The notes: generated from the sequence alone by a model not told the origin. Shown: positions 4,139 to 57,639, counted from the first letter of the stretch. The stretch is 64,000 nt of DNA from an uncultured Candidatus Saccharibacteria bacterium (GCA_964641545.1 CAZXLT010000002.1:4934-68933), one strand, 5' to 3'. Numbers and translations are program-made.

Positions 4139-4215
4139 AAGGGGGTTGAGCGAAGCCATGAAGACCTCATCATCCAAGATTGACAATTTTATATTTTTGT
4201 GTTAATAATAATACT

Positions 4216-5277: not shown

Positions 5278-5313
5278 TTTACTTATGTCTTAATCGAAGT
5301 TATTATGTAGTTA

Positions 5314-6420: not shown

Positions 6421-6455
6421 GCACTAACTTTGTAGGGTGGGGTAACTAAGTATCT

Positions 6456-9289: not shown

Positions 9290-9292
9290 CAA

Positions 9293-13183: not shown

Positions 13184-13188
13184 CAATA

Positions 13189-15330: not shown

Positions 15331-15334
15331 CAGT

Positions 15335-16635: not shown

Positions 16636-16643
16636 CTGATTAA

Positions 16644-17705: not shown

Positions 17706-17736
17706 GCTTAGATCCTATCATTTAGTGGCGTTATGT

Positions 17737-23747: not shown

Positions 23748-23802
23748 ACAACAACCACGAGCGGTTTCAGGCGAACACAGTGGTTTGTTATAATGCTAAC
23801 AG

Positions 23803-25283: not shown

Positions 25284-25286
25284 CTA

Positions 25287-26204
25287 CTACAACGAGGCAA
25301 GATAGTCTTCAACAGTTTGACGAAGCGATATAGTAGGCTGCCACCCGCAGGCAACATTTAATGCGGAAAAGGACCCAAAAATTTCCTGCGGGTCATTAGG
25401 ACGTAACAATTCGTTATTAATTTCAATAGGTTTCTCTTTTGTCTCCGAAACCTCAAAGATAAGATCAAGTAACTCCTGCCCGCTCACGCTTTTACCAGAG
25501 CAGACATTGAATATTTTATCGCTCAACATTTCTCGCGTGGCTAATTCTACGTAGGCGCGAACGACATCTCGGACATCAGTGTAATCTCTGCGAGTCGAAA
25601 GGTCGCCTGCCACGATACTTTTCTTATGCAATACCTGGCTCACCAGGTCTGGCAGTAAAAACCCTGCTAACTGGCCTGGTCCAATGTGGTTAAACGGCCG
25701 TGCAACAATGACGTCTAGCCCCTTGGCGCGGTAGCTCTCTAGCTCTTTCTCCATCGCAATCTTACTGAGAGCATACGGAGACCCGTTGCTTATGAGGCTG
25801 CTACTCTCCAGAAGGGGCATAGGTTGGTTTGTGGAGTAGACCGCACCGGTGCTGATTGCCACCACGCGAATCTTCCCAAGATCCTTTTTTTGTAGCTCAT
25901 CCAATAAAACAGTGTGTACGGCTACATTAATATCCAAATATTTTTTGCTATCTTTGAACGAAGCACCGACTTTTGCCAGCCCTGCAAGATTAACGACTGC
26001 ATCGACTTGGTGCAGAGGAATTTTTGCAACAGAGGCAGGGTCGGTAAGGTCGCAAGAGGTGTAGTTGGCGAGCAGCCCAGCAATAGCCTTGTCTGGTTCT
26101 GCCTCAATGCCACACCCAAAAACTTGGTGGTGTTGTTGATGTAAAGCTGCCACAAGATGCTTGCCGACAAAGCCGCTTACGCCAGCAACCAAAACCGTTT
26201 TCAT
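25287..26204 (-). CDS. NAD-dependent epimerase/reductase, GDP-4-dehydro-6-deoxy-D-mannose reductase (Rmd)-like
   Basis: 305 aa. VAGVSGFVGKHL, SPYALSK, ARPFNHIGPGQ and FNVCSG resemble Rmd as I recall it. It is convergent with gmd. Confidence 0.6.
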   Translation of the reverse strand: MKTVLVAGVSGFVGKHLVAALHQQHHQVFGCGIEAEPDKAIAGLLANYTSCDLTDPASVAKIPLHQVDAVVNLAGLAKVGASFKDSKKYLDINVAVHTVLLDELQKKDLGKIRVVAISTGAVYSTNQPMPLLESSSLISNGSPYALSKIAMEKELESYRAKGLDVIVARPFNHIGPGQLAGFLLPDLVSQVLHKKSIVAGDLSTRRDYTDVRDVVRAYVELATREMLSDKIFNVCSGKSVSGQELLDLIFEVSETKEKPIEINNELLRPNDPQEIFGSFSALNVACGWQPTISLRQTVEDYLASL

Positions 26205-26301
26205 ACCATATACTATAACCTAATCGTGACGTTGTTGCGTCAAGAAAAGCACAGATAACAACGCTTTGCTGCAAGATCCTAAACACCGTATAATAGTGTG
26301 G

Positions 26302-27117
26302 ATGTTAGATCGATTTAAAAAACGGTTTCACTACTCTGTTATTTTACTTAAACAATTGGTTAAGACTGACTTTAAGCTTCGATATCAAAATTCTGTCCTA
26401 GGTTATTTGTGGACTCTTCTGCGACCTCTTTTCCTTTTTGCGATACTGTACCTGGTTTTCGTTAAAGTGCTCAATGCAGGAGCAAATATATCGCACTTCG
26501 GCGTCTACCTGCTGCTAGGCATAGTGTTGTGGAACTATTTTGTTGAAGTTACAACTGGCAGCGTTGCTGTAATTGTGGCAAAAGGCGACCTCATGCGGAA
26601 AGTTAGTTTCCCAAGGTACGTTATTGTACTGGCTGGTTCGCTGTCTGCCCTGATCAATTTGCTGTTTAATCTTGGTGTTGTAGCTATTTTTATGATTATC
26701 GATAAAACCCAGATAAGCGCGTATGCAGTGCTGTTGCCGCTATTAATACTCGAGCTATTTATTTTTGGTCTCTCCGTGGCCTTCCTGCTTAGTGCTCTAT
26801 ACGTGAATTTTCGTGATATTGGGTTCGTCTGGGAAGTCATAATTCAGGGAGCGTTCTTCGCCACCCCGATAATGTACGATTTTTCATTCGTTACGTCTAA
26901 GAGTGAATTTGCTGGTAAAATCTTGGCCAGCAGCCCAATCACACAAATAATGCAGGACGCACGACACATATTAATCACGCCGGAGACCATCACTGTGGGG
27001 AATATATTCGGCGGGAAAATAGGATACTTTATACCCTTGACGTTTGTTCTTATTGTGGCTATCTCTGCAGTTTTCTATTTTAGAAAACGTTCCCCATATT
27101 TTGCGGAGGATGTATAG
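26302..27117 (+). CDS. ABC-2 type polysaccharide/teichoic-acid export permease (Wzm/TagG-like)
   Basis: FKLRYQNSVLGYLWTLLRPL motif and six TM helices. ATG 26302 is preferred over the TTG 26266 in the track. Confidence 0.8.
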   Translation: MLDRFKKRFHYSVILLKQLVKTDFKLRYQNSVLGYLWTLLRPLFLFAILYLVFVKVLNAGANISHFGVYLLLGIVLWNYFVEVTTGSVAVIVAKGDLMRKVSFPRYVIVLAGSLSALINLLFNLGVVAIFMIIDKTQISAYAVLLPLLILELFIFGLSVAFLLSALYVNFRDIGFVWEVIIQGAFFATPIMYDFSFVTSKSEFAGKILASSPITQIMQDARHILITPETITVGNIFGGKIGYFIPLTFVLIVAISAVFYFRKRSPYFAEDV

Positions 27118-27119
27118 CT

Positions 27120-28316
27120 GTGAGTGAAGTAGCGCTACGCGTAAACAATGTCTCCAAGAACTTTCTGCTCCCACAGGAAAAAAACGACACGTTTAAGAAC
27201 CTGTTTACAGGACTCATAAAGGGCAAAAATAGTAAGGCAAAAACAACACAACACGCACTACAAGATATCAGTTTCGAAGTTAATAAGGGTGAATTTTTTG
27301 GTATCGTTGGGCGTAACGGCAGCGGTAAAAGTACTCTGTTAAAAATATTAGCCGGTATATACCAGCCCACCAAAGGTGCAGTCGAAAAACAGGGTAGATT
27401 GGTACCGTTTATTGAGCTTGGGGTTGGCTTCAACCCAGAATTAACAGGACGAGAAAACGTCTTTCTTAATGGTGCGCTACTTGGTTTTAGTGAAAGTGAA
27501 GTCGCCGCTATGTATGACGATGTGGTAGCTTTTGCAGAGCTTGAAGAGTTCATGGATCAGAAGCTCAAGAATTACTCATCCGGCATGCAAGTTCGTTTGG
27601 CTTTCAGTATGGCAACGCGGGCCGAAGCAGACATCTTGCTGATAGACGAAGTCTTAGCGGTAGGAGACGCTGACTTTCAGCGAAAATGCTTCGACTACTT
27701 CTTGAAGCTTAAAGCTCAAAAAAAGACCGTAGTTTTTGTTAGCCACGATATGAACGCGGTGCGGCTTTATTGCGACAGGGCTATATTGATTAATGATGCT
27801 AGTTTGGTGCAATCTGGGAGTGCGCAGAAAGTCTCTGATGCATACACAAAACTTTTTGATAAACCAAACAAAGTTGGCACACAGAAGAACAAAAGAAAAT
27901 ACGAAAGCACTGGGCGAGATGGAAGCGTAGCAAATATTAATGCTGTGAGTATCAACAAGATGGTAACTTTCCCAAACGACGTAAGGTTTTCGATTGATAT
28001 TGAAGCCAGACAAAACACGGAGGAACTGATTGTTGGATTTGCTCTTAAGAACGAAGCAAAGGAAAAGCTTGTTGGCACAAACTCAGTTATTCTACAAAAG
28101 AAAATCGAACCTCTTCTGAAAGGGCAAAAAACAACCGTCAGAATTTCTCTGCCCAATATTTTTTCGTCCGGCACGTACTATTTAGACGTTGCTTTGCAGA
28201 CTAAAGCCTATAGGTTTATTGATGACTGGGAAGATGCGGCATGCTTCGAAATTGTTAACCGGTTCACGACACCGTACAAGATTAGTCCTGAGTTTGATTT
28301 AACAGAAGAACGATAG
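27120..28316 (+). CDS. ABC polysaccharide export ATP-binding protein (Wzt/TagH-like) with a C-terminal glycan-binding-type extension
   Basis: GTG start. Walker A is GRNGSGKST, the signature is YSSGMQVRLAF and Walker B is ILLIDEVLAVGD. About 140 extra C-terminal residues follow, as in Wzt proteins. Confidence 0.85.
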   Translation: MSEVALRVNNVSKNFLLPQEKNDTFKNLFTGLIKGKNSKAKTTQHALQDISFEVNKGEFFGIVGRNGSGKSTLLKILAGIYQPTKGAVEKQGRLVPFIELGVGFNPELTGRENVFLNGALLGFSESEVAAMYDDVVAFAELEEFMDQKLKNYSSGMQVRLAFSMATRAEADILLIDEVLAVGDADFQRKCFDYFLKLKAQKKTVVFVSHDMNAVRLYCDRAILINDASLVQSGSAQKVSDAYTKLFDKPNKVGTQKNKRKYESTGRDGSVANINAVSINKMVTFPNDVRFSIDIEARQNTEELIVGFALKNEAKEKLVGTNSVILQKKIEPLLKGQKTTVRISLPNIFSSGTYYLDVALQTKAYRFIDDWEDAACFEIVNRFTTPYKISPEFDLTEER

Positions 28317-28318
28317 AA

Positions 28319-29596
28319 CTAAGAACACACAGCAGTTAGTATTCTAGATATACTTTTTCCCCATGGGAACTTTGCCGCTTGTCGTATGCCCTTTTGGCGC
28401 ATATTGTTACGTAATTCTTTGTTAGAAAGCTTTTCGTAGTTATCAATAATATCATGGAAATCCCGTATATAAATCGCAGCATCTTCTGCTATCTCAGCTA
28501 TTGAGGAATTTTTATACGTTAATACGGGTGTTCCATATCTCATGGCTTCAAGAATGGGCAGACCAAAACCCTCATAAAGGCTTGGGTATACTAATGCATG
28601 AGCATTTTTATATAGCCACTCTCGAACATTATCTGGAGCAAACCCAAGAAAATGAATTTGATCCAAGTAAGAGTCATGAAGTAAATACTTATGAAGTCTA
28701 GGTACTGGGATTGCTTTAGGGCCTTTCATTGTGTCTCCCGCTAGCACAAGGGTAACGTCCTCGCCCCTGGCCCTGAGATTATTATATGCTGCAACAAGCT
28801 CGATGATTTCTCTTCTTGGATCTGCACCGCCGACAAATAGTAAGAATTTCTTGTCTTTTAACTCAACTGGCTTCTGTATGTATTCCCAGCTTGTTGGTTG
28901 CCACTCATAAAAATCGGGAGTTTTTTCGTTTGTTTTGGCAGGACTAGAGTCTACGCCAAGGCGACAGACCACAATTTTTGACGAAGGAACACCTACGTGT
29001 TTTATGAAATCTTCTTTTGTATGTTCTGAAATTGCCAGAAGTTTATGAAATCTTCTTGCGATCAATTTTTGTTTCCTGACGTAATATTTGCGCGCATACG
29101 CGCAGCGAAGTGCGCTAATAATCCCCCTGCCGTTTGCGCGTGCCGTACCATAGTCCCACAGGTAATCTGTTTCCAGGATGTATGGTATGAGATCATATGT
29201 TATTTGGTAGGACAACACGCCACGTGGGGCGGGGCGGTTTTGATCAAATTGGATAAATCGGTCAATGCCACTTGTGTCAAACAGTTGTTTTTCACCAAAA
29301 TACAAAGACTTCTGTTCTATAAACTGATTAGCGATTGAGTTGAGCAGCTTTGCTTTACCGGGTAGTGACCATGATATCTTTTCTGCGCGTCGGAACTTAC
29401 GAATTTCGTACTCTAAATCTGAAAGGTTAAGAAGCTCCAGCGGATCGTAACTATCATTTTGTTCGATATAGAAAACAAATGAATGGGCTGCTCGGTCAGC
29501 TTTAGACATGTTGTTAATGAAATGTATAGCAGTGTGCCCAATGCCTCTTTCGCGGTGTGGTGTTTGTAGGACGCTTAGATCTACACCTATTTTCAT
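28319..29596 (-). CDS. glycosyltransferase, GT4 family
   Basis: EGFGLPILEAMRYGTPVLT motif. ATG 29596 (MKIGVDLS) forms an ATGA overlap with the upstream gene's stop, so it is preferred over the track start 29647. Confidence 0.75.
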   Translation of the reverse strand: MKIGVDLSVLQTPHRERGIGHTAIHFINNMSKADRAAHSFVFYIEQNDSYDPLELLNLSDLEYEIRKFRRAEKISWSLPGKAKLLNSIANQFIEQKSLYFGEKQLFDTSGIDRFIQFDQNRPAPRGVLSYQITYDLIPYILETDYLWDYGTARANGRGIISALRCAYARKYYVRKQKLIARRFHKLLAISEHTKEDFIKHVGVPSSKIVVCRLGVDSSPAKTNEKTPDFYEWQPTSWEYIQKPVELKDKKFLLFVGGADPRREIIELVAAYNNLRARGEDVTLVLAGDTMKGPKAIPVPRLHKYLLHDSYLDQIHFLGFAPDNVREWLYKNAHALVYPSLYEGFGLPILEAMRYGTPVLTYKNSSIAEIAEDAAIYIRDFHDIIDNYEKLSNKELRNNMRQKGIRQAAKFPWGKSISRILTAVCS

Positions 29597-30759
29597 AGTG
29601 CTTCCTTTTTCAGACGCTCCCAATAGACGGCCGCACTTTTCTCCCATGAGAATAACGATGCCCGTGAAGGACCTTTGACCAGGGCTGACTGCTTTACCGA
29701 TGAATATTGCTCCAGGTATTCTTCCATTTTTTTTGAGAATCCTTTTGTGTCAGTATGATCTAGCATTAGACCAGCGTCTCCTACTACTTCAGGCAACGAC
29801 GAGTTATCGGCGGTTATTACTGGTACCCCACAGGCCAATGCCTCCAGGGGCGGCATGCCAAAGCCTTCATAGTGACTTGGGTACACTAGCATCTTTGCGC
29901 CAGAAATGAGTGCCGGCTTGTCTCGATCGTGGACGTATTCTGATGGACGGACTATACTGTACCCGTCTTTTACTAGGTTGATAATCTTGCCAAAAAGTTT
30001 ATCCGTCTTCCATCCACTCACCCCTACCAACAAAAGAGAAATATTGTGTCGATATTTCTCTGGAAGAGCACAATATGCATCAACCAATGTTTCCAGGTTT
30101 TTTCGTGGCTCCAAATTAGACAACGCAAGAATATACTCTTTCGGTAATTCATACTTATCTTTTACCTTTTGAATTTCGCTTTCTGGACGCCTGAAAAAGA
30201 ATCGCTGGTCTGCAGCAGGGGTCGCTACCAATACTTTCTCGGAAGGAAGTTTATAGAATTCGCATATTTCTTGCTTTGCACTTTGCGAAATAGTAAAAAC
30301 CGTCTTTACTTGTTCGATAGAATGACGGGTTCCTTTCGATAAAAACGCAGCATTTTTATCATCTGAATACTCCTTGTGCAGCTCGAAGGATAAATCGTAG
30401 AGAATAACAGCCGATTTGCTAAAAAGTAGTGGCATAGTGACAAAACGTGTAAAAACGTAGAAGCCCGGACCACACAAAAGATCCAACGGAGGCATTTTTT
30501 GCCTGTGCCATAAAGCCGCAGCGTAACGAAACGGAATAGGAATTTTTTTTGCCCGAATGTGTTTAAAGCCAAACTTGTTAAAACGCTTTTCCTCGTCGAA
30601 GGGTATAACTACGCGTACGTCAGGAGTTGCCAAACCTGCTAACTTGTCTTTCTCTATCAGGTGGTCTAGCCCTCTGAGTATCCCTAAAATGTACTGCCCG
30701 ATACCGCTGAAATGCCCGTCAACTAACCCAAGTCCTTCAATAAATATAGTTTTTGACAT
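29593..30759 (-). CDS. glycosyltransferase, GT4 family
   Basis: 388 aa. EGFGMPPLEALACGVPVITADNSSLPEV motif. Confidence 0.75.
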   Translation of the reverse strand: MSKTIFIEGLGLVDGHFSGIGQYILGILRGLDHLIEKDKLAGLATPDVRVVIPFDEEKRFNKFGFKHIRAKKIPIPFRYAAALWHRQKMPPLDLLCGPGFYVFTRFVTMPLLFSKSAVILYDLSFELHKEYSDDKNAAFLSKGTRHSIEQVKTVFTISQSAKQEICEFYKLPSEKVLVATPAADQRFFFRRPESEIQKVKDKYELPKEYILALSNLEPRKNLETLVDAYCALPEKYRHNISLLLVGVSGWKTDKLFGKIINLVKDGYSIVRPSEYVHDRDKPALISGAKMLVYPSHYEGFGMPPLEALACGVPVITADNSSLPEVVGDAGLMLDHTDTKGFSKKMEEYLEQYSSVKQSALVKGPSRASLFSWEKSAAVYWERLKKEAL

Positions 30760-37772: not shown

Positions 37773-39125
37773 TTACAGAGAGAGCAATGGTTTTCTGGAA
37801 ACTTTCGAGGCAACAAGAAAAGCAAGCATGCCTCCAAGAACTGAGCACAATAGAAGCTGAATCATGTTTAATGGGTTCGAAGCGTTAAATAGCGGGACTA
37901 TTATGGTGGGCACTCCTATAAAACTTGCGAGTACAATCGATTGATATTTGCGTTGTACAAGCAAGAAAAAGCCAAGTAGAGTACTGGCTACCAAGGAAAG
38001 TTGATATGCCGCAGCAAAAAGCAACAGTAGCCCATCGCCTGCAAATTTTTCGCCAAGCAGTAAACCGGTGACGCTTTCTCTAAAGATATATACAAAAAGT
38101 AGGCTCATTGTAGCAAGCAGCAAAATTAGTCGATAACCGGTCTTTAGAACTCGCTTATTGACCGTATTGTCTTTCAAGGAAATTTCAGGAAGTATTATCC
38201 AAATAATTAAAAGCGAAACATAATACAACCCATTGCTCAGTATACTAACCCCGCTATAGCGACCGGCTGCTTCTGGGCTAAAAAGATATTTAGCGAGTGT
38301 GATGTCGTAGTTTTGCAGAAAGCTAAATACACTCACTACTAGTACGCACTGGATTAAATAGAGCTTGATCTCTCCTATTGCAGTAAGGTTATCGCGTGCC
38401 TTGCGTAGTAAAGGGGCGAAAATGCTAGGAAGTGATATGCCTGGCAATAGTTTAAGTAGTACTAAGCCGAAAAAACCAGACAAGACGATCCCAGTGATCG
38501 CCCCATTAACCCCAAAGCGCAGGGCCAAGATAACACTTAAAACGATCTTCATTAGAGCGGCTCCGACGTTAAAGAATCCAACACGCACCAATTCTTTGTG
38601 CCCCTGCAAATACCCCGTCCAAATAGTTGCAGGTATTGAGCCAAGAAGTACTAAGGATAGTAGTATAAACGGTTCGATTGACTGAACCTGAAGGGCGCTC
38701 CTAATCATTGGAGAGAATAAAAGCATCAGTGCTGTAGCACCGAAAAGAGCGTACAGCAATACGGTTTGAATTGCCTCGACTCTCTTCCGCGCCGTGTTTT
38801 CTGATTGAGATTTTACCAGGTAAAGAGAAGTTATATTGATGCCAAGAAGAATACCGAGAAGCTGATTCGATATTGCTGTAATAGCAGCGAAGTCACCAAA
38901 GTTTTGTGCATCAAGTATCCTCGCGAGTAGTGGGTATAAGGCATAGTTTAAGATTGCTCCAAGAATAGACAGGAAGCCAAAGAGGCCAGACTGCACATAA
39001 AATTTCGGGAGATTAGGGATTTTCACTATAATAAATGATAATTGAAACAAATACGTAAGCCAACTGCACTTAGCCTTCAGGCTAGCATAAATAGGAGATT
39101 GAATTGAAGAAAGTATCAGAGTCAA
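37773..39125 (-). CDS. polysaccharide flippase, MOP/Wzx family
   Basis: 450 aa with ~12-14 TM helices. The N-terminal region GLFGFLSILGAILNYALYPLLARIL...FGDFAA is typical of polysaccharide biosynthesis (Wzx-type) proteins. The true start is probably internal, because the track ORF overlaps the divergent gene. Confidence 0.65.
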   Translation of the reverse strand: MTLILSSIQSPIYASLKAKCSWLTYLFQLSFIIVKIPNLPKFYVQSGLFGFLSILGAILNYALYPLLARILDAQNFGDFAAITAISNQLLGILLGINITSLYLVKSQSENTARKRVEAIQTVLLYALFGATALMLLFSPMIRSALQVQSIEPFILLSLVLLGSIPATIWTGYLQGHKELVRVGFFNVGAALMKIVLSVILALRFGVNGAITGIVLSGFFGLVLLKLLPGISLPSIFAPLLRKARDNLTAIGEIKLYLIQCVLVVSVFSFLQNYDITLAKYLFSPEAAGRYSGVSILSNGLYYVSLLIIWIILPEISLKDNTVNKRVLKTGYRLILLLATMSLLFVYIFRESVTGLLLGEKFAGDGLLLLFAAAYQLSLVASTLLGFFLLVQRKYQSIVLASFIGVPTIIVPLFNASNPLNMIQLLLCSVLGGMLAFLVASKVSRKPLLSL

Positions 39126-40249
39126 CGTTTATTATCAGCGCTAATGGATTTGCCGATGGGCCATCTCAGGCCCTAAGAGACTATCTGATTAAACACAAAG
39201 CTAAAAGGGTTGTAACATTGGCGCACCCATTGGTGGCTGAAACAAAAGGCGAGCATATTATATCTGACTACAAGGATGGTAAAACTACTACTAGAACAAT
39301 CAAACTTTTGAACAAGCCTCCCTATACATACGGTTTTGATTTGGTTACTCCTCTGAATCTTCCTAAGGCCACAATCTGGTTCGGTTTTAATAACCTGGCC
39401 TGCCTCAGGGGGCTCGTCAGAAAGAAAACAGGGCGGGTCGACGCAGTAGTATACTGGGCGGTTGATTTTGTAGCAGATCGTTTTGGCAAAAACCCATTAA
39501 CACATGTGTACAAAAGCTTAGATAAAATGGTATGCCGACAGGTAGATAGTCGCGTAGAACTATCGCCGGTAGGAGTCGTTAGTCGCAACAAGTACCTAGG
39601 CCTTAAAAAAGCCGATATTGCTCCAACACAGGTTGTGCCCATGGGGGCCTGGCTGGATAGGACACCCAAGACATCCTTGAAAGCATGGGACAAGCATACC
39701 GCAGTATTTCTTGGGCATCTAATCCCCAGACAGGGAGTAGACACGTTCATCAAGGCAATTGCTATTCTCAAGAAGAGAGGGGTCGAAGTAAAAGCAGAGA
39801 TAATTGGCGGTGGCCCATTGAAAAATAAACTAGAATCTCTCGCTAGCGAACTAAACGTATCGTCTGAAATTAATTTTCATGGGTTTGTGGCCGATCACAA
39901 GGACGTCGAAGCTATACTTGCCTCGGCAACCTTTGCAGTAGCTCCATATGTTAAAGACGATAAGAACTTTGTTCAATTTAGTGACGCTGGCAAACTAAAA
40001 GCATATCTAGGCGCCTATCTTCCTGTTGTCCTTACAGACGTACCCAATAACGCAAAAGAACTACAAAAAGAAGGTGCGGCCATAGTTTCTGGGGGTAACC
40101 CAGAAGAGTTTGCCGAATCGATGAGCGTTTGGTTACAAGATAAAAAGATGTGGGAGAAAGCACATCGCTCAGCCAAGACTATTGCTCAAGATTTTGATTG
40201 GAATAATCTTTTAAAGAAAGCGCTAGCAAATTTTGGGCTAAAGGACTAG
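39104..40249 (+). CDS. glycosyltransferase, GT4 family
   Basis: 381 aa with a TTG start in the track. The C-terminal half (FLGHLIPRQGVDTFIKA...HGFV...APY) has a GT-B group-1 pattern. Confidence 0.65.
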   Translation: MKKVSESTFIISANGFADGPSQALRDYLIKHKAKRVVTLAHPLVAETKGEHIISDYKDGKTTTRTIKLLNKPPYTYGFDLVTPLNLPKATIWFGFNNLACLRGLVRKKTGRVDAVVYWAVDFVADRFGKNPLTHVYKSLDKMVCRQVDSRVELSPVGVVSRNKYLGLKKADIAPTQVVPMGAWLDRTPKTSLKAWDKHTAVFLGHLIPRQGVDTFIKAIAILKKRGVEVKAEIIGGGPLKNKLESLASELNVSSEINFHGFVADHKDVEAILASATFAVAPYVKDDKNFVQFSDAGKLKAYLGAYLPVVLTDVPNNAKELQKEGAAIVSGGNPEEFAESMSVWLQDKKMWEKAHRSAKTIAQDFDWNNLLKKALANFGLKD

Positions 40250-41184
40250 CCGTTAACGCCGGGCTGTTCGACGAACCACGAATACATTCGAGTTAGACCG
40301 TCCTCTAGTTCGATGCCAGAGCGCCACCCAAGCTTGCTAAGGCGACTAACATCGAGTAATTTCTTGGGCATACCGTCTGGTTTGGTCTTGTCGAAAACTA
40401 GTTTGCCCTTATACCCAACAATATTTTTTAGTATCTCAGCTAGTTCTTTGATCGAAACATCAGACCCTGTACCAACATTTAAGAACTCGCGGTCGTTATA
40501 GTTTTTCATTAACCAGAGAATAGCAGCGGCTAAGTCGTCGCAATGTAGAAATTCTCGTCGGCTAACACCAGAACCCCAAATTACAACTTCGACATCATTA
40601 TTCGTTTTTGCCTCATGCATGCGGCGCATAAGAGCTGGGATAACGTGGGAAGATTCAGGGTCCAGATTGTCTCCTTCGCCATAAATATTTGTTGGCATAC
40701 ATGAAATAAAATTGGCGTCATACTCACTATTGATATATTCACAAAGCTTCATTCCGGCTATCTTAGCTATAGCATAAGCTTCGTTAGTAGGTTCGGGTTT
40801 ACCATTAAGAAAGTTATCTTCCGACATTGGTTGGGGGCTACCTAAAGGGTAGATACATGAACTGCCCAGAAAAAGTAACTTTTTTGCTTTGTTCTTGTAT
40901 GCTGCCCATATAACGTTGTTCTGAATTTGAAGATTTTCATATAAAAACTCGGCGGGATATGTCATGTTGGCTTTTATGCCACCTACGCGTGCCGCAGCAA
41001 GGATTACGTAATCAGGCCTTTCTTGTTTGAAAAATCTTTGCACGGAATGATTATCCGTTAAATCTAGCTCCTGGCGTGTTCGCGTTAAAACGTTTTTGTA
41101 TCCTTGAGCTTGAAGTTTCCTCACGACAGCAGAACCTACCAGTCCTCTATGACCAGCCACGTAAATCTTTGCATTTTTTTGCAT
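40246..41184 (-). CDS. GDP-L-fucose synthase family epimerase/reductase (Fcl, or ColC GDP-L-colitose synthase)
   Basis: 312 aa. Motifs are IYVAGHRGLVGSA, ILAAARVGGIKANMTYPAEFLYENL, FLGSSCIYP, EPTNEAYAIAKIAG, SHVIPALMRR and KPDGMPKKLLDVSRL. It is near-collinear with E. coli Fcl as I recall it. Confidence 0.85.
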   Translation of the reverse strand: MQKNAKIYVAGHRGLVGSAVVRKLQAQGYKNVLTRTRQELDLTDNHSVQRFFKQERPDYVILAAARVGGIKANMTYPAEFLYENLQIQNNVIWAAYKNKAKKLLFLGSSCIYPLGSPQPMSEDNFLNGKPEPTNEAYAIAKIAGMKLCEYINSEYDANFISCMPTNIYGEGDNLDPESSHVIPALMRRMHEAKTNNDVEVVIWGSGVSRREFLHCDDLAAAILWLMKNYNDREFLNVGTGSDVSIKELAEILKNIVGYKGKLVFDKTKPDGMPKKLLDVSRLSKLGWRSGIELEDGLTRMYSWFVEQPGVNG

Positions 41185-41187
41185 CAG

Positions 41188-42405
41188 TTATTTCTCCAGA
41201 AGCTTACACAGTTTTGCTATTTCTTTTTTAGTCATCTCAGGGTTGTTCCCAAAATAGAAGCCATTGTCATGTATGCTCTCAGAGTTTGGGTTTGGTTCCT
41301 CGTCGTGGGCATACTTTTTGTAAAAAGGCTGCTTAGTTATGCTCCCGGCAATAATCGGCCGAATTTCTACACCCGCTTTTTCAAAGCGTTTTTTATATTT
41401 GGCACTCAACTCGTTAGTCTGGCAGATTATTGGCATGGCAAAGTTTGACACCACACTCATATGAGAAAGATCATACTGAACAAAATCGTTGTTATTGCTC
41501 ATAGCTTTATAAAAGGCAGAAAAATTTGCTGCTCTTTTTTCTATGATTTCATCTAAGTAAGCAAGCTGTTGGTTGCCGAGAAAGCCGTTTATCTCAGTTG
41601 GACGGGCATTGTATGCAAGGTCATAGAATGTATAGCGAGAGTAAAACGCACTAATTTTATGCTTATCTCGTAATTTTTTCTGTTCAGCTGGTTGTAAATT
41701 GCGGTCCCAGCCATGAGCTCTTGCCATGACTAAGGCCTGGTTTAGCTCTTTGTCATCCGTGCAGATCATACCGCCTTCCAGTGTTGACATGTGGTGCCCT
41801 ACAAAGAACGAAAAAGTAGAAGCGATCCCAAAATTTCCCAATAATTTGCCGCCGACCCTAGAGCCTAATGATTCGCAGTTATCTTCTATGAATACTACTT
41901 TATTCTTCTTGCAGATATTACTGATCTTGGCGATGTCATCGCTAAAACCAAGCACGTTCGTAATAAACAACCCGTCTAACTCATCGATCCTCTCAAGCAA
42001 TATATCGGGGGAAACATTTAGAGTATTCGGATTGCAATCTAGAGCAATCGGCTCAAGACCCAGCTGTATTATTGGCATAACATTTGTTGGCCAAGTTAGG
42101 GCGGAGAATCCAATCTTGTCACCCTTCTTTAATTTTCCTATGTTCATTAGGGCTTGGAGGAGCAATAAATTGGCTGAACTTCCACTCGACACAAAAGCTG
42201 CGTATTCTCGCTCTTGTGCTCTGGCGAAGCCATTCTCAAACTGCAAACATTGTTCGCCCATGCTGAGCCGATCAGTTTTTGTAATAAAATTGACCAGCGC
42301 TTTTTTAGTTTTTCTCTCATTAAAAAAGCTTGATTTAATAAGCTTGATCATATGTTGACCAGAACTTAACTTTTCAACTTTTCCTAAGTAATAATTTTTT
42401 GCCAT
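41188..42405 (-). CDS. PLP/PMP-dependent sugar 3-dehydratase of the DegT/DnrJ/EryC1 fold (ColD/E1-like; His in place of the Schiff-base Lys)
   Basis: Motifs are SSGSSANLL, IEDNCESLG, STFSFFVGHHMSTLEGG (His-His at nt 41788-41799) and ARAHGWDRN. It lies 3 nt upstream of the fcl/colC-like gene. The true start may be ATG 42351. Confidence 0.6.
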   Translation of the reverse strand: MAKNYYLGKVEKLSSGQHMIKLIKSSFFNERKTKKALVNFITKTDRLSMGEQCLQFENGFARAQEREYAAFVSSGSSANLLLLQALMNIGKLKKGDKIGFSALTWPTNVMPIIQLGLEPIALDCNPNTLNVSPDILLERIDELDGLFITNVLGFSDDIAKISNICKKNKVVFIEDNCESLGSRVGGKLLGNFGIASTFSFFVGHHMSTLEGGMICTDDKELNQALVMARAHGWDRNLQPAEQKKLRDKHKISAFYSRYTFYDLAYNARPTEINGFLGNQQLAYLDEIIEKRAANFSAFYKAMSNNNDFVQYDLSHMSVVSNFAMPIICQTNELSAKYKKRFEKAGVEIRPIIAGSITKQPFYKKYAHDEEPNPNSESIHDNGFYFGNNPEMTKKEIAKLCKLLEK

Positions 42406-42583: not shown

Positions 42584-43591
42584 GTGAAGTATAGTGTGGT
42601 TCTGCCAACCTATAACGAAGGATCGTGGCTGATTGGGACAGTCGATCATCTAAATGCGGCCTATAAAGAATTAGGTAATAGCCAAGCTGAGTTGATTATT
42701 GTTGACGATGGATCGTCAGATGACACCTCCCAAATTGTCAAAAAGCTAGCCTCGGATATACCAATTGTTTATATAAAACAAGAAAACAAAGGGCGTTTTT
42801 TAGCTCGAAAAACTGGGGTTGAGAAAGCCAAGTACGAACAGATCTTATTAATAGACTCCAGAGTACATATTCATAAAAAAGCACTCCAATTTATAGACAA
42901 CAGGATTCGCAAGCACCCCGAGCAAGCCATATGGAATGCGCATGTGTATGTCGACAAGCACAATAATCCATTTGCTCGGTTTTGGGATGTAATAACAAAT
43001 ATTGCGTGGCGACGCTATTTTGCACACCCCCGTGAAGTTAGTTATGGTATCGAGGAGTTTGACTACTACCCAAAAGGGACGACCTGTTTTTTTTCGAAGA
43101 AAAGCATACTCCTTCCAGCCATTAAGAACTTTGAATCAGCGTCAAAGGACATGAGGCGTGCCAACGACGATACTGTGCTGATCAAGAACATTGCGCGAGA
43201 GCACAATATAAATATGTCTCCACAATTTTGCTGCACATATCATGCGCGAAGCTCTTTTGGTAAATTCCTAAAACACGCATACCACCGGGGGCAAGTTTTT
43301 GTTGATGGATTCTTAAAGCCCGGCAACCGGTACTTTGTGCCACTGCTGATGTTCATATCACTTGTTTGTGCCGGTGTCTTGTTGCTAGTTCTGTTCCCGG
43401 AATTGGTGGTAGGTGTTCCAATAGCCATAGCGTCATTTATGCTGGCCTGTTTTGTCATCTCTAGGGTCGCTAACGTGCCAGCAATAACGATTACAGATTC
43501 GCTGTGGTTCTCGATACTTGCAGTACCGTTTGCAGGATTCTATGGTGCGGGAATTTTGAGAGCAACGTTTGCCAAGTTAATTAAACGCTAA
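42584..43591 (+). CDS. glycosyltransferase, GT2 family, with C-terminal TM helices
   Basis: GTG start. Motifs are KYSVVLPTYNEGSWL, IIVDDGSSDDT and LIDSRV. Confidence 0.7.
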   Translation: MKYSVVLPTYNEGSWLIGTVDHLNAAYKELGNSQAELIIVDDGSSDDTSQIVKKLASDIPIVYIKQENKGRFLARKTGVEKAKYEQILLIDSRVHIHKKALQFIDNRIRKHPEQAIWNAHVYVDKHNNPFARFWDVITNIAWRRYFAHPREVSYGIEEFDYYPKGTTCFFSKKSILLPAIKNFESASKDMRRANDDTVLIKNIAREHNINMSPQFCCTYHARSSFGKFLKHAYHRGQVFVDGFLKPGNRYFVPLLMFISLVCAGVLLLVLFPELVVGVPIAIASFMLACFVISRVANVPAITITDSLWFSILAVPFAGFYGAGILRATFAKLIKR

Positions 43592-45399
43592 ATCTTATAC
43601 AAAGAGTACTTGCTATCTTTGAAGATAGGCTTTCCAAATACTTCATTTGCTTTGTTGACAAGCCCAGAATTTTGCGACAATTCTTCATGGATCAAGTAGT
43701 ACTGCAAACCTAGCTGATGCATTTTGTCTTTGTCATCATGATCAAGGTCTGTAAAATCTTGCAGTTGCTCCTTGTAGTCTGCTGGTTCATAGCCGCTGTA
43801 ACCATTAAATATATTTCGATTATGATACCCAGCCCATAAAGTATCTTCGGTCTGAGCAACTGGGATGCCTGCGTATGGGTAATCTTTTTGGGTTCTAACT
43901 ATAACTATGTTATTAACATCCCGGTTGGCATTAATAAACTTGTAAACTTGTGGAATAGTATACTGAACCTGGTTTGTATCGATTTGCTTAAATGGTCTGG
44001 TTAATAGTGTTTGTATTGGCAAAAGGTCAAATGAAACAATCAGAACTATAAGCGAACCAAAAAACATTTTTTGTTTTGATTTCAACTTTGATTCATTCAT
44101 AAGATAACCAGCAAAAATGGCCAGTAGACAGCACAAAGCAAATAGGGGTATTACTGCCGCTCTACCAATTGCCCGGATGAATGAAAGTTGCGGTATGAAT
44201 AGATCAACTAGTATGTAGGGAGCTGGGATTGCAAGACGCACGCCATTGATAGCAAAGCTTGAATGACTTCCATACTTAACAATAGGACCGAGCGACAAAA
44301 CAATCCCCGTGACGGCTACAATTCCCAGCAGAACACATAACTGTTTGTTCTTTACGAAAAAACTTTTACTGCTGAACAGTGCTGCGCCAACACAAAATAC
44401 CAAAATGCTGTACAGTGTTATTCCTGCGTAGGAAAAGCTATCAGGGTTATAGCTGTTACGTTTGGAATTTTGATGTATTTGGTAGTACAAAGATCCAAAC
44501 GGAGATTCTTGATAAGGTAAAACGTAATCATTAACGCTAGCAGAAAACTCAACTTGGCTAGCTATAGAAAAATTAGCGTTTTTAGATTTAGAGAAGCGTG
44601 AATATTCTAGCGCAAGAGGCAACGTGCAAGCCAACGCAAAAAGGGTAGTAGCCAAAAGGAGCAAACCTCTTCGGCGATGTTCTGAGTTGAGCATTGTGTA
44701 GCCAATGAAAAGGACTACTATCACTAAGCCAAATACCATTTGATACCACGACGCAAAAAACAACAGAAGCGAGGCAATCCCAAACCCTGCAAGGTATTTT
44801 TTTTCTCCTGTTGCTTTAAATTTTAGAAGCATAAGAATAATCAGCGGCACATAAAAGATACTAAGATTCTGTAGGTGGCTCATGGAAGATATTTTATTGG
44901 GTGCAAATTCAAATACGAGACCGGCAAGTATGCTAAAGATTTTCCTGCCCCCACTTAAATAGTGAGCCAGCAAATACATGAAAAACCCTGAGAAAAATGC
45001 ACTAAGGACATACCAGACATTTACTGAAAACAGTGGATTATCGTTAACAAAATGCAAGGGTAAAGTTAGAAGACCCGCAGATAGCTGTGTTTCGGAGTAC
45101 AACATAGAGTCTTTATTAGGAAAGAAGATATTGCCGTCACTGTAGCTAGAGCAGTCTTGGAGTAAAAGGCAATGGTGATTCCGAGCGAGAGTCCATGCGT
45201 TAAACATATGGTCGCCTCCTTCGGAATATGTGCTAAGGTTCGTAGCCATTGGCCACAGAAAGCTCACGGTCACTACAAAAAAGAGCAGTGCAGCGATTAA
45301 TACATGCCTATAATGCACAAGCCTTTGGTGTAACCAATGCAAGGAAATATTTTTGATTCTAACTGATTCTTTTTTATTTGGGGATGATTTTTTTGGCAT
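43588..45399 (-). CDS. large polytopic membrane protein (GT-C-like glycosyltransferase candidate)
   Basis: 603 aa. About 11-12 TM helices, then a ~150-aa soluble C-domain. Its start overlaps the stop of the upstream Dpm1-like GT2 gene by 1 nt. Confidence 0.4.
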   Translation of the reverse strand: MPKKSSPNKKESVRIKNISLHWLHQRLVHYRHVLIAALLFFVVTVSFLWPMATNLSTYSEGGDHMFNAWTLARNHHCLLLQDCSSYSDGNIFFPNKDSMLYSETQLSAGLLTLPLHFVNDNPLFSVNVWYVLSAFFSGFFMYLLAHYLSGGRKIFSILAGLVFEFAPNKISSMSHLQNLSIFYVPLIILMLLKFKATGEKKYLAGFGIASLLLFFASWYQMVFGLVIVVLFIGYTMLNSEHRRRGLLLLATTLFALACTLPLALEYSRFSKSKNANFSIASQVEFSASVNDYVLPYQESPFGSLYYQIHQNSKRNSYNPDSFSYAGITLYSILVFCVGAALFSSKSFFVKNKQLCVLLGIVAVTGIVLSLGPIVKYGSHSSFAINGVRLAIPAPYILVDLFIPQLSFIRAIGRAAVIPLFALCCLLAIFAGYLMNESKLKSKQKMFFGSLIVLIVSFDLLPIQTLLTRPFKQIDTNQVQYTIPQVYKFINANRDVNNIVIVRTQKDYPYAGIPVAQTEDTLWAGYHNRNIFNGYSGYEPADYKEQLQDFTDLDHDDKDKMHQLGLQYYLIHEELSQNSGLVNKANEVFGKPIFKDSKYSLYKI

Positions 45400-46145
45400 T
45401 ATTTTCGCACAAACACATTAAAGTATATGATTTCCCAAATAGCTTTCAATCCATCTCGAAAACCTATTTTTTTCCCTTCCTCCTTGCTGCGCCCATAGTA
45501 GCTAATACCAATTTCATACACTGCTGCTTTGCTTTTAGCGATGCGTGCGGTAATTTCTGGCTCAAAACCAAAGCGCTTTGCTTTTAGATCTTTCGCTAAA
45601 CCCCGCGCGAGATCGCCGCGTATCATTTTGTAGCAAGTTTCCATATCGGTTAGGTTTAGACCGGTAAAAATATTTGAAAGCGTTGTAAGAAATTTGTTAG
45701 CAACCTGGTTTCGGTAATAGATAATTCGGTGAGGCTCGCCACCGATAAAGCGTGAACCATAGACAACATCAGCTTGCCCGCGTTCGATTGGGTAGAGTAA
45801 TCTAATATACTCCTGCGGATCGTATTCAAGATCTGCATCTTGCACAACCATAACGTCGCCAGTAGTTTCCAATATCCCACGCTTTAGCGCGGCACCTTTA
45901 CCGTGGTTGTGATCTTGGAAAAGTAGCTTCAGAGAAGAGTCGTTCTTTGCCAAGCGCTTTAGGATTTCTCGAGTTTTATCTTTCGAGCAGTCGTCAATAA
46001 CAACAAGCTCTTTTTTTGTTGTACCTAAATTAACTCGTTGTACCTCACCAATTATTTTTTCAATAGTATTTTCTTCGTTGTAGCAAGGTATGACAATCGA
46101 TAGTTTTTTTGCTTTTGGCATAGAGTCTCCAATAGATCGCTTCAA
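45399..46145 (-). CDS. GT2 polyprenol-phosphate mannosyl/glucosyl-transferase-like (Dpm1/Ppm1-type, soluble)
   Basis: Motifs are LSIVIPCYNEENTI, VVIDDCSKDKT and VVQDADLEYDPQEY. The likely true start is ATG 46121 (MPKAKKLS). Confidence 0.75.
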   Translation of the reverse strand: MKRSIGDSMPKAKKLSIVIPCYNEENTIEKIIGEVQRVNLGTTKKELVVIDDCSKDKTREILKRLAKNDSSLKLLFQDHNHGKGAALKRGILETTGDVMVVQDADLEYDPQEYIRLLYPIERGQADVVYGSRFIGGEPHRIIYYRNQVANKFLTTLSNIFTGLNLTDMETCYKMIRGDLARGLAKDLKAKRFGFEPEITARIAKSKAAVYEIGISYYGRSKEEGKKIGFRDGLKAIWEIIYFNVFVRK

Positions 46146-49769: not shown

Positions 49770-50813
49770 ATGATTACTGTCATTATCGCTGGTGGGTCTG
49801 GCACTCGCCTCTGGCCGCTTTCAACCCCAGACTACCCAAAGCATCTTCTTAAAATTAATGGTCATCAAAGATCACTTCTGCAAAATACCTACGATCGGGT
49901 AAAGGACATCAGCAGTGGGGTGTATGTTATTACCGAAAATAGCCACGATCAACATATTAGGGAGCAGCTTCCAGATCTTGATGAGGAAAACTTTGTGATA
50001 GAACCTGCACGTCGAGGTACGGCAAGCTGCATCTTAGCTGGTCTACTCAAGATTGCTGAAAAGCATGACACTTCGGAGCCAATAGCTTTCCTTGCTGCCG
50101 ACCATTACATACGTGATGTTCAGGGTTTTGGGAACACGTTTACTCGAGCGGCAGAGGTTTCATCGAAAGATCAGAGAATCGTTTTGGTTGGTATAGAACC
50201 TGATTACCCTGCAACGGGTTTTGGATACATACAAAAAGGTGAACAGTATGACCAAGACGGGCTTGTTTTTAATGTCCATTCTTTTAAAGAAAAGCCAAAG
50301 TTTGACCTTGCAAAGGAATACTTTAAGAGCGGACACTACCTATGGAATTCTGGTGCATTTGTAGGGTCCGTTGATGTGTTCAAAAAGAAAATGAAAGCTT
50401 TCGCGCCAGAGTTGCTGGATAACCTGGAGTCTTTAGCTTCAGCTAAAGATGATGATGAGTTTCTTGAAAGATATCTAAAGCTAGAAAATATTGCGATAGA
50501 CTACGCCTTAATTGAAAGAGTAGAGGACTTATTAGTGGTACCTGCTACCTTCGACTGGATGGATTTAGGGTCTTATACTGATCTTCATAAGGCGGTCGAC
50601 TCGGATGAACAAGGCAATCATACACATGGGTCAAATGTTGAACTGGATAACGTAACAAATTCATTCGTACAGAACCACGAAGAAAAGCCAGTTGCTGTAA
50701 TAGGTCTAGATGGGGTTGCTGTTGTGAATACGCCCCACGGAGTACTGGTAACAAGAAAAGATCTAGCACAGAATGTCGGCGATGTAAGTAAGCGCTTTAA
50801 AAAGGAGAAATAA
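49770..50813 (+). CDS. manC: mannose-1-phosphate guanylyltransferase
   Basis: 347 aa. Motifs are IIAGGSGTRLWPLS, EPARRGTA and GFGYIQ. It has the nucleotidyltransferase domain without a C-terminal isomerase/cupin domain. Confidence 0.8.
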   Translation: MITVIIAGGSGTRLWPLSTPDYPKHLLKINGHQRSLLQNTYDRVKDISSGVYVITENSHDQHIREQLPDLDEENFVIEPARRGTASCILAGLLKIAEKHDTSEPIAFLAADHYIRDVQGFGNTFTRAAEVSSKDQRIVLVGIEPDYPATGFGYIQKGEQYDQDGLVFNVHSFKEKPKFDLAKEYFKSGHYLWNSGAFVGSVDVFKKKMKAFAPELLDNLESLASAKDDDEFLERYLKLENIAIDYALIERVEDLLVVPATFDWMDLGSYTDLHKAVDSDEQGNHTHGSNVELDNVTNSFVQNHEEKPVAVIGLDGVAVVNTPHGVLVTRKDLAQNVGDVSKRFKKEK

Positions 50814-51568
50814 TGAGACGAAAAATAATCGCCTTTGATTTAGATGGAACCTTGGCGCCAAGTAAATCTCCGCTACCAGACGAAATGTCTGAAGTTCTGA
50901 ATGAGTTACTTACAAAATTTCAAGTTTGTGTTATTTCTGGTGGTAAGTTCGAACAATTCGAAAAGCAGCTACTTGGGAACTTAAAAGCCGATCCTACAAA
51001 ACTTGAGGCGCTGCATATTATGCCAACGTGTGGAACGCGTTACTACCGCTACGATGTTGTACAGAAGGCCTGGGAAAAAGTCTATGCAGAAGATTTTAGC
51101 GAAGAACAGAAGAAAAAAATAATCAGCGCCCTTAACAAGGGTCTTGATGACTTAAAGATGCGAGAAACGAAGTTGTGGGGTGATATTATTGAGGACCGTG
51201 GTAGTCAGGTGACTCTATCTGCTCTTGGTCAAGAAGCGCCAGTTGATGCCAAAGAGGAGTGGGACCCGGATCAAACAAAAAAAGCAAAGTTGCGGACCTA
51301 TATTGCAGAACTAATACCAGAGTTTGAAGTTCGTGCTGGTGGCACTACTTCGATTGACGTAACCAAACTTGGTATTGATAAAGCCTACGGCATGCAAAAA
51401 TTAATGGATATGCTGGAAGTCAGTAAAGAAGAAATAGTATTCTTTGGTGATCGACTCAATGAAGGTGGTAACGATTATCCAGTTAAGGCAATGGGCATAG
51501 ACTCACTAGAAGTTTCTAACTGGCAAGATACTGTGCTCGCGCTGCGAGCGCTCCTCTCGGTGGTTTAA
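50813..51568 (+). CDS. HAD-IIB phosphatase-fold protein, eukaryotic-type phosphomannomutase-like
   Basis: Motifs are IIAFDLDGTLAP, VISGGKFEQFEKQL, GGTTSIDVTKLGIDKAYG and FFGDRLNEGGNDYP. It is collinear with PMM as I recall it. The start overlaps the manC stop (TAATG). Confidence 0.6.
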   Translation: MRRKIIAFDLDGTLAPSKSPLPDEMSEVLNELLTKFQVCVISGGKFEQFEKQLLGNLKADPTKLEALHIMPTCGTRYYRYDVVQKAWEKVYAEDFSEEQKKKIISALNKGLDDLKMRETKLWGDIIEDRGSQVTLSALGQEAPVDAKEEWDPDQTKKAKLRTYIAELIPEFEVRAGGTTSIDVTKLGIDKAYGMQKLMDMLEVSKEEIVFFGDRLNEGGNDYPVKAMGIDSLEVSNWQDTVLALRALLSVV

Positions 51569-57122: not shown

Positions 57123-57210
57123 ATTAGGTCAAATTATAGCATAAGAACGGTCCTAAAAAGTGGATAAAACCAAGGACTGCTATACTAAAAACGAACAAAA
57201 CGTTAACAGT

Positions 57211-57639
57211 ATGAGCAAGACTAAAAATAAACCCAATAAACAGTCTATTACCCAGTTCGTTCAGTACCTCGTAAGCGGAGGTGCTTACTTTTGGAGTGGC
57301 TACCTCATGTTTTTTGTGGCAGACCAATGGCTAGATCTTGACCTGTGGTGGGCAAAACTAATTGCAAATTTGACAGGCTGGACCGTTAACTACGTTCTGC
57401 AACGCTACTGGGTGTTTAATAATCCAAAGCTGCGAAATAAAAACACTCAGGTCACCGGGCGATATATAGCGATAACTGCTTTTAATTTCGTGCTTGATTA
57501 TGTGATTGTGCGTGTCCTCAAAGATGTAGGGATCAGCCCATATATCGGGCAGTTTGTTTCAGCCGGTTTCTTTACGGGCTGGAACTATCTTTGGTATAAA
57601 TTCTGGGTATTTAAACAACCAGCGAAGCGAAAAAAGTAA
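57211..57639 (+). CDS. GtrA-family membrane protein
   Basis: FVQYLVSGGAYFWSGYLMFF, QRYWVF and a C-terminal NYLWYKFWVF. ATG 57211 is preferred over the track start 57160. Confidence 0.65.
   Translation: MSKTKNKPNKQSITQFVQYLVSGGAYFWSGYLMFFVADQWLDLDLWWAKLIANLTGWTVNYVLQRYWVFNNPKLRNKNTQVTGRYIAITAFNFVLDYVIVRVLKDVGISPYIGQFVSAGFFTGWNYLWYKFWVFKQPAKRKK

Follow-up and report, generated by a model that had tools for sequence, protein, structure and literature searches.

A 64,000-nucleotide stretch of genome from an uncultured Candidatus Saccharibacteria bacterium (GCA_964641545.1, CAZXLT010000002.1:4934-68933; hereafter the window) carries two adjoining minus-strand genes that we read as the branch committed to the synthesis of GDP-L-colitose (3,6-dideoxy-L-xylo-hexose). 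We put the probability of this reading, in which the product is predicted from sequence and gene context, at roughly 65%. The upstream gene (41188-42405, ATG start) encodes a 405-residue protein that Pfam (DegT), PDB, and Foldseek comparisons mark as a predicted ColD-like, pyridoxamine 5'-phosphate (PMP)-dependent GDP-4-keto-6-deoxy-D-mannose 3-dehydratase. The downstream gene (40246-41184, ATG start) encodes a 312-residue Fcl-type GDP-4-keto-(3,)6-dideoxymannose epimerase/reductase, the predicted GDP-L-colitose synthase according to its NCBIfam and PDB matches. An earlier note, made from this DNA alone, had described both open reading frames (ORFs) and a spacing of 3 nucleotides between them; we recovered the same ORFs, and the junction reads TAA-CTG-ATG. 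To date, 3,6-dideoxyhexoses have been known as immunodominant O-antigen sugars of enteric pathogens. If our reading is correct, a sugar of this kind would commonly decorate Saccharibacteria and other ultra-small cells. Patescibacteria live attached to hosts, and display on the envelope therefore matters for them.

The 405-residue protein belongs to the DegT_DnrJ_EryC1 family (PF01041; Pfam, 5e-60). When PDB entries were ranked by sequence, E. coli ColD came first (2gms, 6.5e-58), followed by E1 (3bcx, 8e-41) and a putative NDP-hexose 3-dehydratase (9wvy, 5e-32), with sugar aminotransferases, including GDP-perosamine synthase, at 4.5e-19 or weaker (perosamine synthase chains, ~7e-18). A Foldseek comparison of the AlphaFold model (pLDDT 83, pTM 0.85) with the PDB placed ColD in all of the best 12 chains (TM 0.82-0.87), then E1, and then aminotransferases. 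By both sequence and fold, no solved structure is closer than ColD; E1 follows, and GDP-perosamine synthase and the other aminotransferases lie much farther away. Residues 1-16 of the model have a pLDDT below 50, and residues 1-18 correspond to positions 42352-42405. Most relatives are 387 residues long and begin at Met19 of the query, so the functional start may be Met19; the nearest Saccharibacteria homologues nevertheless have the long form.

The protein contains STFSFFVGHHMSTLEGG, within which minus-strand positions 41788-41799 translate to GHHM, with His204 encoded at 41794-41796 and His205 at 41791-41793. At the aligned site, the ColD crystal chains read SHH in the wild type, SNH in H188N, SKH in H188K, and NKH in S187N/H188K (HMMER alignments), which assigns the first His of GHH, His204, to the column of ColD His188. 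By this alignment and translation, His204, the predicted catalytic acid/base, stands where sugar aminotransferases have the Schiff-base Lys, and this is the replacement that the earlier note had pointed out. We extended the comparison to a family of 689 clusters (50% identity) obtained at E ≤ 1e-30 in an exhaustive HMMER search of 1.84 billion representatives, and aligned 167 sequences (the full-length proteins among the best 150, together with proteins from genome loci). The catalytic column holds His in all 167 and Lys in none. In addition, the alignment has no invariant Lys column within the clade of the query (the highest value, 87%, falls in the N-terminal region) and, across the family, no Lys column of 80% or more, so that, as far as alignment can tell, no alternative conserved Lys is available for an internal aldimine. 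The note had named such a Lys elsewhere in the protein as the observation that would speak against it. The four segments that it gave as collinear with ColD also held when query and ColD were compared (SSGSSANLL/SSGSTANLL, EDNCESLG/EDNCESMG, RAHGWDRN/RAHGWTRN, and GVEIRPI/GIECRPI).

All sugar 3-dehydratases have His instead of Lys at this site (PMC8987622). E1 and SpnQ carry a four-cysteine [2Fe-2S] motif and require a reductase, whereas ColD has no cluster, its product being freed by hydrolysis and PMP being regenerated with glutamate; the His substitution and the missing [2Fe-2S] motif together define the ColD-type mechanism (PMC8987622). In the alignment with E1, the Cys-rich insert of that enzyme, RDCYCAPGCDNTC, faces HGWDRNLQPAEQK in the query, where there is no Cys, and ColD has HGWTRNLPKKNK at the site of the insert. 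An Asn occupies the position of E1 Cys192, and the E1 cysteines occur in none of the 167 aligned family sequences. The query is identical to ColD at S55, G56, S57, W88, E158, D159, N160, E162, S163, S183, H188, H189, T192, E194, R213, H215, W217, R219, N248, R250, P251, E329, and R331 (conservation alone was compared for R219, N248, R250, and R331). At the positions that discriminate ColD from E1 (N160/C, E162/D, H215-G216/absent, R250/K, P251/I, E329/G, and P332/L), the query always agrees with ColD.

Collectively, family, fold, catalytic residues, and the missing Fe-S motif support the assignment of the 405-residue protein as a ColD-type, Fe-S-independent 3-dehydratase. With ColD/WbdK (E. 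coli O55, PDB 2gms, 3b8x, 2r0t, and 3gr9; also Yersinia pseudotuberculosis), it shares the DegT fold, being matched best by that structure, the His at the Lys position, the lack of Fe-S cysteines, nearly all active-site positions, the tight pairing with an Fcl-family gene, and a location within a locus for GDP-mannose-derived sugars. With E1/DdhC/RfbH (3bcx), the CDP-6-deoxy-L-threo-D-glycero-4-hexulose 3-dehydrase, it shares the PMP-dependent 3-dehydrase class and the catalytic His (AHH in E1). However, E1 bears a [2Fe-2S] cluster on its Cys-rich insert and requires E3, and here the insert and the cysteines are missing, as is E3 among window ORFs of at least 150 residues.

The identity of the nucleotide sugar is answered better by gene context than by residues. 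We called ORFs in 40 genome loci holding a relative at least 50% identical to the dehydratase and compared them with the window proteins, counting as Fcl-type those at least 40% identical to the window Fcl-type protein. In 26 of the 40 loci, an Fcl-type gene was the immediate same-strand neighbor, and in 12 gmd was directly adjacent; one or both lay within 10 kb in 37, a conserved GDP-sugar gene context. Triads of gmd, dehydratase, and fcl were found in L006, L008, L009, L010, and L013, and also in L053-L056. One further triad (L051 7905-11176) lies on the 249-kb linear plasmid NZ_CP106799.1 of Streptomyces sp. HUAS 15-9, where PGAP names its members gmd, 'DegT... aminotransferase', and 'GDP-L-fucose synthase'; it is set among wecB, wecC, and glycosyltransferase genes. 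This organism is cultured and tractable, which makes the prediction cheap to test. In one Saccharibacteria relative, the dehydratase-fcl pair is closely preceded by a NUDIX gene (L052 4287-4709), reminiscent of the GDP-mannose mannosyl hydrolase in gmd-fcl clusters, e.g., L002 12581-13036.

The window itself encodes the enzymes that would supply the substrate, as the earlier note had listed. These are the GDP-mannose 4,6-dehydratase Gmd (24252-25283, plus strand; TIGR01472, 442 bits against a cutoff of 415; Pfam GDP_Man_Dehyd, 7e-134), the mannose-1-phosphate guanylyltransferase ManC, which lacks a phosphomannose isomerase domain (49770-50813, plus strand; Pfam NTP_transferase and ManC_GMP_beta-helix; TIGR01479, 262 bits, transferase part), and a HAD-IIB phosphomannomutase (PMM)-like protein (50813-51568, plus strand; Pfam PMM, 54 bits against a cutoff of 22.4; HAD-IIB, 93 bits). 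A Rmd-like GDP-4-keto-6-deoxymannose reductase, assigned to a GDP-D-rhamnose branch, is present as well (25287-26204, minus strand; PDB matches 2pk3, 1.5e-35, and 6x3b, 1e-34), although no curated family model reaches its own cutoff on this protein. The profile and PDB matches of all four lie far beyond chance. Given the gmd/fcl context in relatives and the Gmd, ManC, and PMM-like proteins of the window, the substrate of the dehydratase is very probably GDP-4-keto-6-deoxy-D-mannose.

The neighbor of the dehydratase belongs to the Fcl/ColC family, as had been claimed, and its own affinities lie on the Fcl side. It scores 478 bits on the NCBIfam Fcl equivalog NF047922 (cutoff 500), a model on which a true Fcl scores 542 bits and E. 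coli ColC 304 bits, and it matches E. coli K-12-type Fcl (Fcl/WcaG/GMER; 1bsv, 1e6u) at 3.3e-109 (1bsv). Its identity is 55% to an E. coli Fcl and 42% to E. coli ColC (O55, WP_000698393.1), which are themselves 41% identical. With ColC it shares the Fcl/GMER family, a similar length, a gene adjoining that of the dehydratase, and the same predicted chemistry; the bit scores and identities point to the independent recruitment of an Fcl-type enzyme. The catalytic residues align with those of Fcl: S108, Y137, K141, C110, and H180 of the window protein fall on E. coli Fcl S107, Y136, K140, C109, and H179. We take the first three to be the Ser-Tyr-Lys triad of short-chain dehydrogenases/reductases (SDRs) and C110/H180 to be the epimerization pair. 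E. coli ColC has the triad and the Cys/His pair too, so these residues do not discriminate Fcl from ColC, and we know of no structure of ColC.

All partners in the window clade score higher to Fcl than to ColC, and L044, the only locus of the canonical ColD clade with a partner, has a ColC-type one; the two dehydratase lineages thus travel with two different Fcl-family lineages. Forty-seven of the 119 closest partner representatives (67-79% identity) come from a contig of exactly the same length as one with a dehydratase match. Among the remaining partner orthologues, five were sampled; each follows directly on a His-type DegT gene, and in four the arrangement is gmd-DegT-fcl. The window partner falls just under the Fcl equivalog cutoff and a 3-dehydratase precedes nearly all of its close orthologues, whereas ordinary fcl genes form gmd-fcl pairs without a dehydratase, as in L002. 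On this comparative evidence, the window Fcl-type enzyme appears to be dedicated to the dehydratase rather than being merely a nearby fucose synthase.

For comparison with the authentic system, ColD residues 19-378 were rebuilt from a PDB alignment and back-translated in AT-rich codons; a blastn search for distant matches with this sequence located colC-colD in 86 E. coli genomes. In E. coli O55:H7 CB9615, colC (L050:8033-8956) overlaps colD (8953-10119) by 4 nucleotides, so the authentic pair is equally tight. A search of E. coli with the window fcl DNA returned just four fcl genes, all distant, from a capsule-type cluster that has no dehydratase.

Based on these data, we infer the substrate, the stereochemistry of the product, the cofactor cycle, and the destination of the sugar as follows. 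The PMM-like protein would make mannose 1-phosphate and ManC would convert it to GDP-mannose, from which Gmd would produce GDP-4-keto-6-deoxy-D-mannose. The dehydratase, having no Schiff-base Lys, would hold PMP non-covalently. By analogy with ColD, a PMP ketimine would form with C4 of the sugar, His204 would take the C4' proton with expulsion of the 3-OH, and the enamine would be released and hydrolyzed to GDP-4-keto-3,6-dideoxy-D-mannose and ammonia; pyridoxal 5'-phosphate would then be returned to PMP with L-glutamate, requiring neither an iron-sulfur cluster nor an E3 reductase. Colitose is 3-deoxy-L-fucose, and an Fcl-type enzyme needs only to perform C5 epimerization and C4 reduction on the 3-deoxy-4-keto substrate; Alam, Beyer and Liu reportedly described this route to GDP-colitose in 2004. 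The window partner would perform both steps, the reduction by NAD(P)H, to give GDP-L-colitose. In a parallel branch, the Rmd-like reductase would take the same Gmd product to GDP-D-rhamnose, and it could reduce the 3-deoxy intermediate as well. Surrounding glycosyltransferases, a flippase, and the LCP ligase also encoded in the window would presumably put the sugar into a wall-linked heteropolysaccharide. The sugar would not belong to a lipopolysaccharide O-antigen, because the envelope of the host is Gram-positive-like and has an LCP ligase.

Several observations weigh against a colitose pathway. The catalytic loop (residues 202-208) is modelled with low confidence by AlphaFold, and gmd lies ~15 kb from the dehydratase in the window, outside the operon. 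Among the ColD positions checked, the sole departure is that of Ser187, which is Gly203 in the query; this position is Gly or Ala in the window clade and Ala in E1. Double mutation of the Ser187-His188 pair turns ColD into an aminotransferase (PDB 3gr9). Orthology of the partner to characterized ColC is contradicted by its 42% identity, compared with 55% to Fcl, and as a protein closer to genuine Fcl than to ColC it could, judging by these affinities, simply make GDP-fucose. Likewise, the dehydratase shares only 34% identity with the authentic ColD of E. coli O55:H7, whereas characterized GDP-sugar C3-dehydratases are 62-67% identical among themselves (PMC10440746). By this measure, the 405-residue enzyme lies outside the clade of the characterized ColDs and is not an orthologue of them.

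Of the alternative readings, the main one accepts the dehydratase step and changes what comes after it. GDP-4-keto-3,6-dideoxy-D-mannose would be finished by another reductase, e.g., the Rmd-like enzyme, giving a D-series sugar such as GDP-3,6-dideoxy-D-arabino-hexose, and the Fcl-type enzyme would make only GDP-L-fucose from the undehydrated pool. We consider this unlikely, though it deserves to be taken seriously. The Fcl-type character of the partner (478 bits on the Fcl equivalog, 55% identity) fits it, as does the presence of a Rmd-like reductase in the island. In addition, the Fcl-type partner is swapped for a divergent SDR (24-33% identity to the window Fcl) in L007, L011, L023, L012, and L015, which indicates that the reductase module is exchangeable and suggests that other 3,6-dideoxyhexose stereoisomers are made elsewhere within the dehydratase clade. 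A precedent exists in the C. jejuni HS:5 and HS:11 systems, in which exchangeable epimerase and reductase partners, including C4-reductases, give different 3,6-dideoxy stereoisomers (PMC10440746). What favors GDP-L-colitose instead is that the dehydratase and the Fcl-type gene lie 3 nucleotides apart and are co-inherited in most relatives, that close Fcl orthologues nearly always follow a dehydratase, and that the Rmd-like gene pairs with gmd and a Wzm/Wzt transporter instead.

The remaining alternatives concern the dehydratase itself. The generic RefSeq label would make it a sugar aminotransferase, producing, e.g., a GDP-4-amino-4,6-dideoxyhexose. It does have the DegT fold, and in vitro ColD shows slow transamination as a side activity. 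SpnQ, too, can transaminate (PMC8987622). However, there is neither a Lys in the catalytic column of the 167 members nor an invariant Lys elsewhere, aminotransferase PDB matches are far weaker (4.5e-19 or weaker), and RefSeq puts the same generic label on crystallized E. coli O55 ColD, all of which makes an aminotransferase very improbable. A CDP-linked, E1/DdhC/RfbH-type 3-dehydrase feeding a pathway of the abequose, paratose, or tyvelose type is what the JGI names of close homologues ('CDP-6-deoxy-D-xylo-4-hexulose-3-dehydrase' and 'E1') imply. RfbH (NF011936) is indeed the best NCBIfam match of the dehydratase, and in a trimmed alignment the query is ~33% identical to ColD and 31% to E1, a similar figure. 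Yet the dehydratase reaches only 202 of the 423 bits required by the RfbH model, which authentic ColD matches as well, at 263 bits. Among window ORFs of at least 150 residues, there is no E3-type reductase, CDP-glucose 4,6-dehydratase, or glucose-1-phosphate cytidylyltransferase; the four Fe-S cysteines are absent, the neighbors in relatives are gmd and fcl, and the discriminating positions hold ColD residues. The CDP/E1 reading was rejected on the missing Fe-S motif, the missing E3 and CDP-glucose genes (among ORFs of at least 150 residues), and the gmd/fcl context, and we regard the chance that it is right as very small. A GDP-heptose substrate seems to us just as improbable. The C. jejuni HS:5 and HS:11 GDP-heptose C3-dehydratases are members of the same GDP-linked ColD family and show that such enzymes accept GDP-6-deoxy-4-keto-heptose, but these proteins are 62-67% identical to ColD, i.e., in the canonical clade, and act on heptoses (PMC10440746). 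The window has no heptose-pathway genes that we could see; it has ManC, a PMM-like protein, and a Gmd above the equivalog cutoff, and gmd is the operon partner in relatives. The heptose reading was rejected because heptose genes were not found and a bona fide Gmd is present.

A neighbor-joining tree of the 167 sequences, built on BLOSUM62 distances with a partial E1 outgroup and without bootstrap, and thus backing a separate clade and not a precise branching order, divided them into a canonical ColD clade, marked by the signature F[F/Y]SHH, and a window clade, marked by FV[G/A]HH..ST, in which Gly (or Ala) replaces Ser187 and the partner is Fcl-type, not ColC-type. The window clade is distinct and very widespread and, as far as could be established, uncharacterized. 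More than 120 clusters (90% identity) share at least 63% identity with the query; those that carry a name are Saccharimonadia or Patescibacteria. Relatives of 50-71% identity in GTDB species genomes come from Saccharibacteria, Moran-, Peregrini-, and Parcubacteria, Microgenomates, Actinomycetota, Cytophagales and other Bacteroidota, Planctomycetota, Lentisphaerae, Chthoniobacter, Leptospiraceae, and two archaeal metagenome-assembled genomes (MAGs) of DPANN type. The relative on the Streptomyces plasmid is 59.5% identical, and one of 51% resides in a 642-kb uncultured phage (LR756502.1). In that phage (L057 6071-8170), an fcl-type gene (52%) and the dehydratase gene (51%) are on the same strand, 3 nucleotides apart, and 6 kb farther downstream comes a second DegT gene, a weaker one. 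The dehydratase-fcl module is not special to the candidate phyla radiation (CPR), occurring in many phyla as well as in a huge phage.

A bolder proposal, which we offer as speculation and think improbable as a whole, is that this clade and its dedicated Fcl-type partner constitute a second, independently assembled 3,6-dideoxyhexose module, passed horizontally between episymbiotic CPR bacteria, DPANN-type archaea, huge phages, and free-living bacteria. Saccharibacteria would then display colitose on a wall-anchored glycan involved in host or phage recognition; with a swapped reductase, the sugar would be another 3,6-dideoxy one, so far not known in GDP-linked form.

Neither the reaction type nor the His signature nor the pairing with an Fcl-family enzyme is new, and since the chemistry is that of a known reaction, the gain lies in distribution and annotation, not in mechanism. 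The distinct, widespread clade with its own Fcl-type partner is new, as is the predicted presence of a 3,6-dideoxyhexose on the surfaces of Saccharibacteria and other ultra-small cells. The earlier note knew of no dideoxyhexose in CPR bacteria, and the literature that we searched likewise holds no meaningful link between Saccharibacteria or CPR and colitose or dideoxyhexoses, nor a chemically characterized surface glycan of any Patescibacterium. As for annotation, RefSeq calls crystallized ColD a 'DegT/DnrJ/EryC1/StrS family aminotransferase' and ColC a 'GDP-L-fucose synthase family protein', so the generic label on the window homologues is uninformative, and NCBIfam has no ColD or ColC model. 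JGI automatic annotation already calls the window clade 3-dehydrases, but as CDP-linked E1, which is the wrong nucleotide. Our analysis would correct the annotation of a large family (the 689 clusters), the members of which are now called 'aminotransferase' or 'CDP E1 dehydrase'.

The surrounding genes form a glycan island in the order GT1, fcl, dehydratase, GT2, ..., Ugd, SDR, ManC, and PMM, an order shared by the Saccharibacteria MAG contigs L003-L006 and L052 with 53-73% protein identity. This synteny, together with identities of 63-73% to the named contigs L003-L006, underlies the assignment of the window to Saccharibacteria, with which its replication, type IV secretion, peptidoglycan hydrolase, and LCP ligase genes agree. 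ManC and the PMM-like gene are 7-9 kb from the dehydratase, on the side opposite gmd. Convergent on fcl is a GT1/GT4-type glycosyltransferase (39104-40249, plus strand; Pfam Glycos_transf_1), with a homologue in the same place in L003-L006 (55-57% identity) and a GT1 of 380-382 residues at the equivalent position in L052 and L056. It is a conserved Saccharibacteria neighbor and a candidate user of the product of the colitose pathway. A GT2 glycosyltransferase with C-terminal membrane helices (42584-43591, plus strand; Pfam Glycos_transf_2) diverges from the dehydratase gene and is likewise a conserved neighbor, its counterparts in L003-L006 being 38-47% identical. Beyond the GT1/GT4 gene lies a polytopic membrane protein without a Pfam match (37773-39125, minus strand), the syntenic gene of which in L052 has a weak Polysacc_synt match; this is probably a Wzx-type flippase for the heteropolysaccharide that would carry the sugar.

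A second glycan route spans 22635-30759 and comprises a GT4, a GtrA-like gene, gmd, the Rmd-like gene convergent with it, Wzm, Wzt (with a C-terminal Wzt_C carbohydrate-binding domain), and two further GT4 genes. The Rmd-like gene thus sits beside the Wzm/Wzt and GT4 genes, an arrangement similar to that of the Pseudomonas aeruginosa cluster for ABC-transporter-dependent D-rhamnan (common polysaccharide antigen). On the other side of the dehydratase, the region 42584-46145 contains the GT2 with membrane helices, a 603-residue polytopic membrane protein (43588-45399, no Pfam match), and another GT2, and two GtrA-family proteins are encoded elsewhere in the island (23803-24255 and 57160-57639). 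These GT2s, the 603-residue protein, and the GtrA proteins look like a polyprenyl-phosphate-sugar/GT-C-type system for extracytoplasmic decoration.

Rfam and tRNA scans of the window gave no matches, so no RNA feature is involved. The early part of the window (593-20464) is a replication-origin neighborhood with dnaA (19094-20464), dnaN (17737-18828), and a recF-like gene (16644-17705), all on the minus strand. Type IV secretion genes adjoin it, namely a PrgI-like gene (5314-6420) and a VirB4/TraG-type ATPase gene (7376-9289). Two very large wall hydrolases are also encoded there, a peptidoglycan hydrolase with GDSL lipase and VanY domains (9293-13183) and a second one with glucosaminidase, amidase_3, and NlpC/P60 domains (13156-15330).

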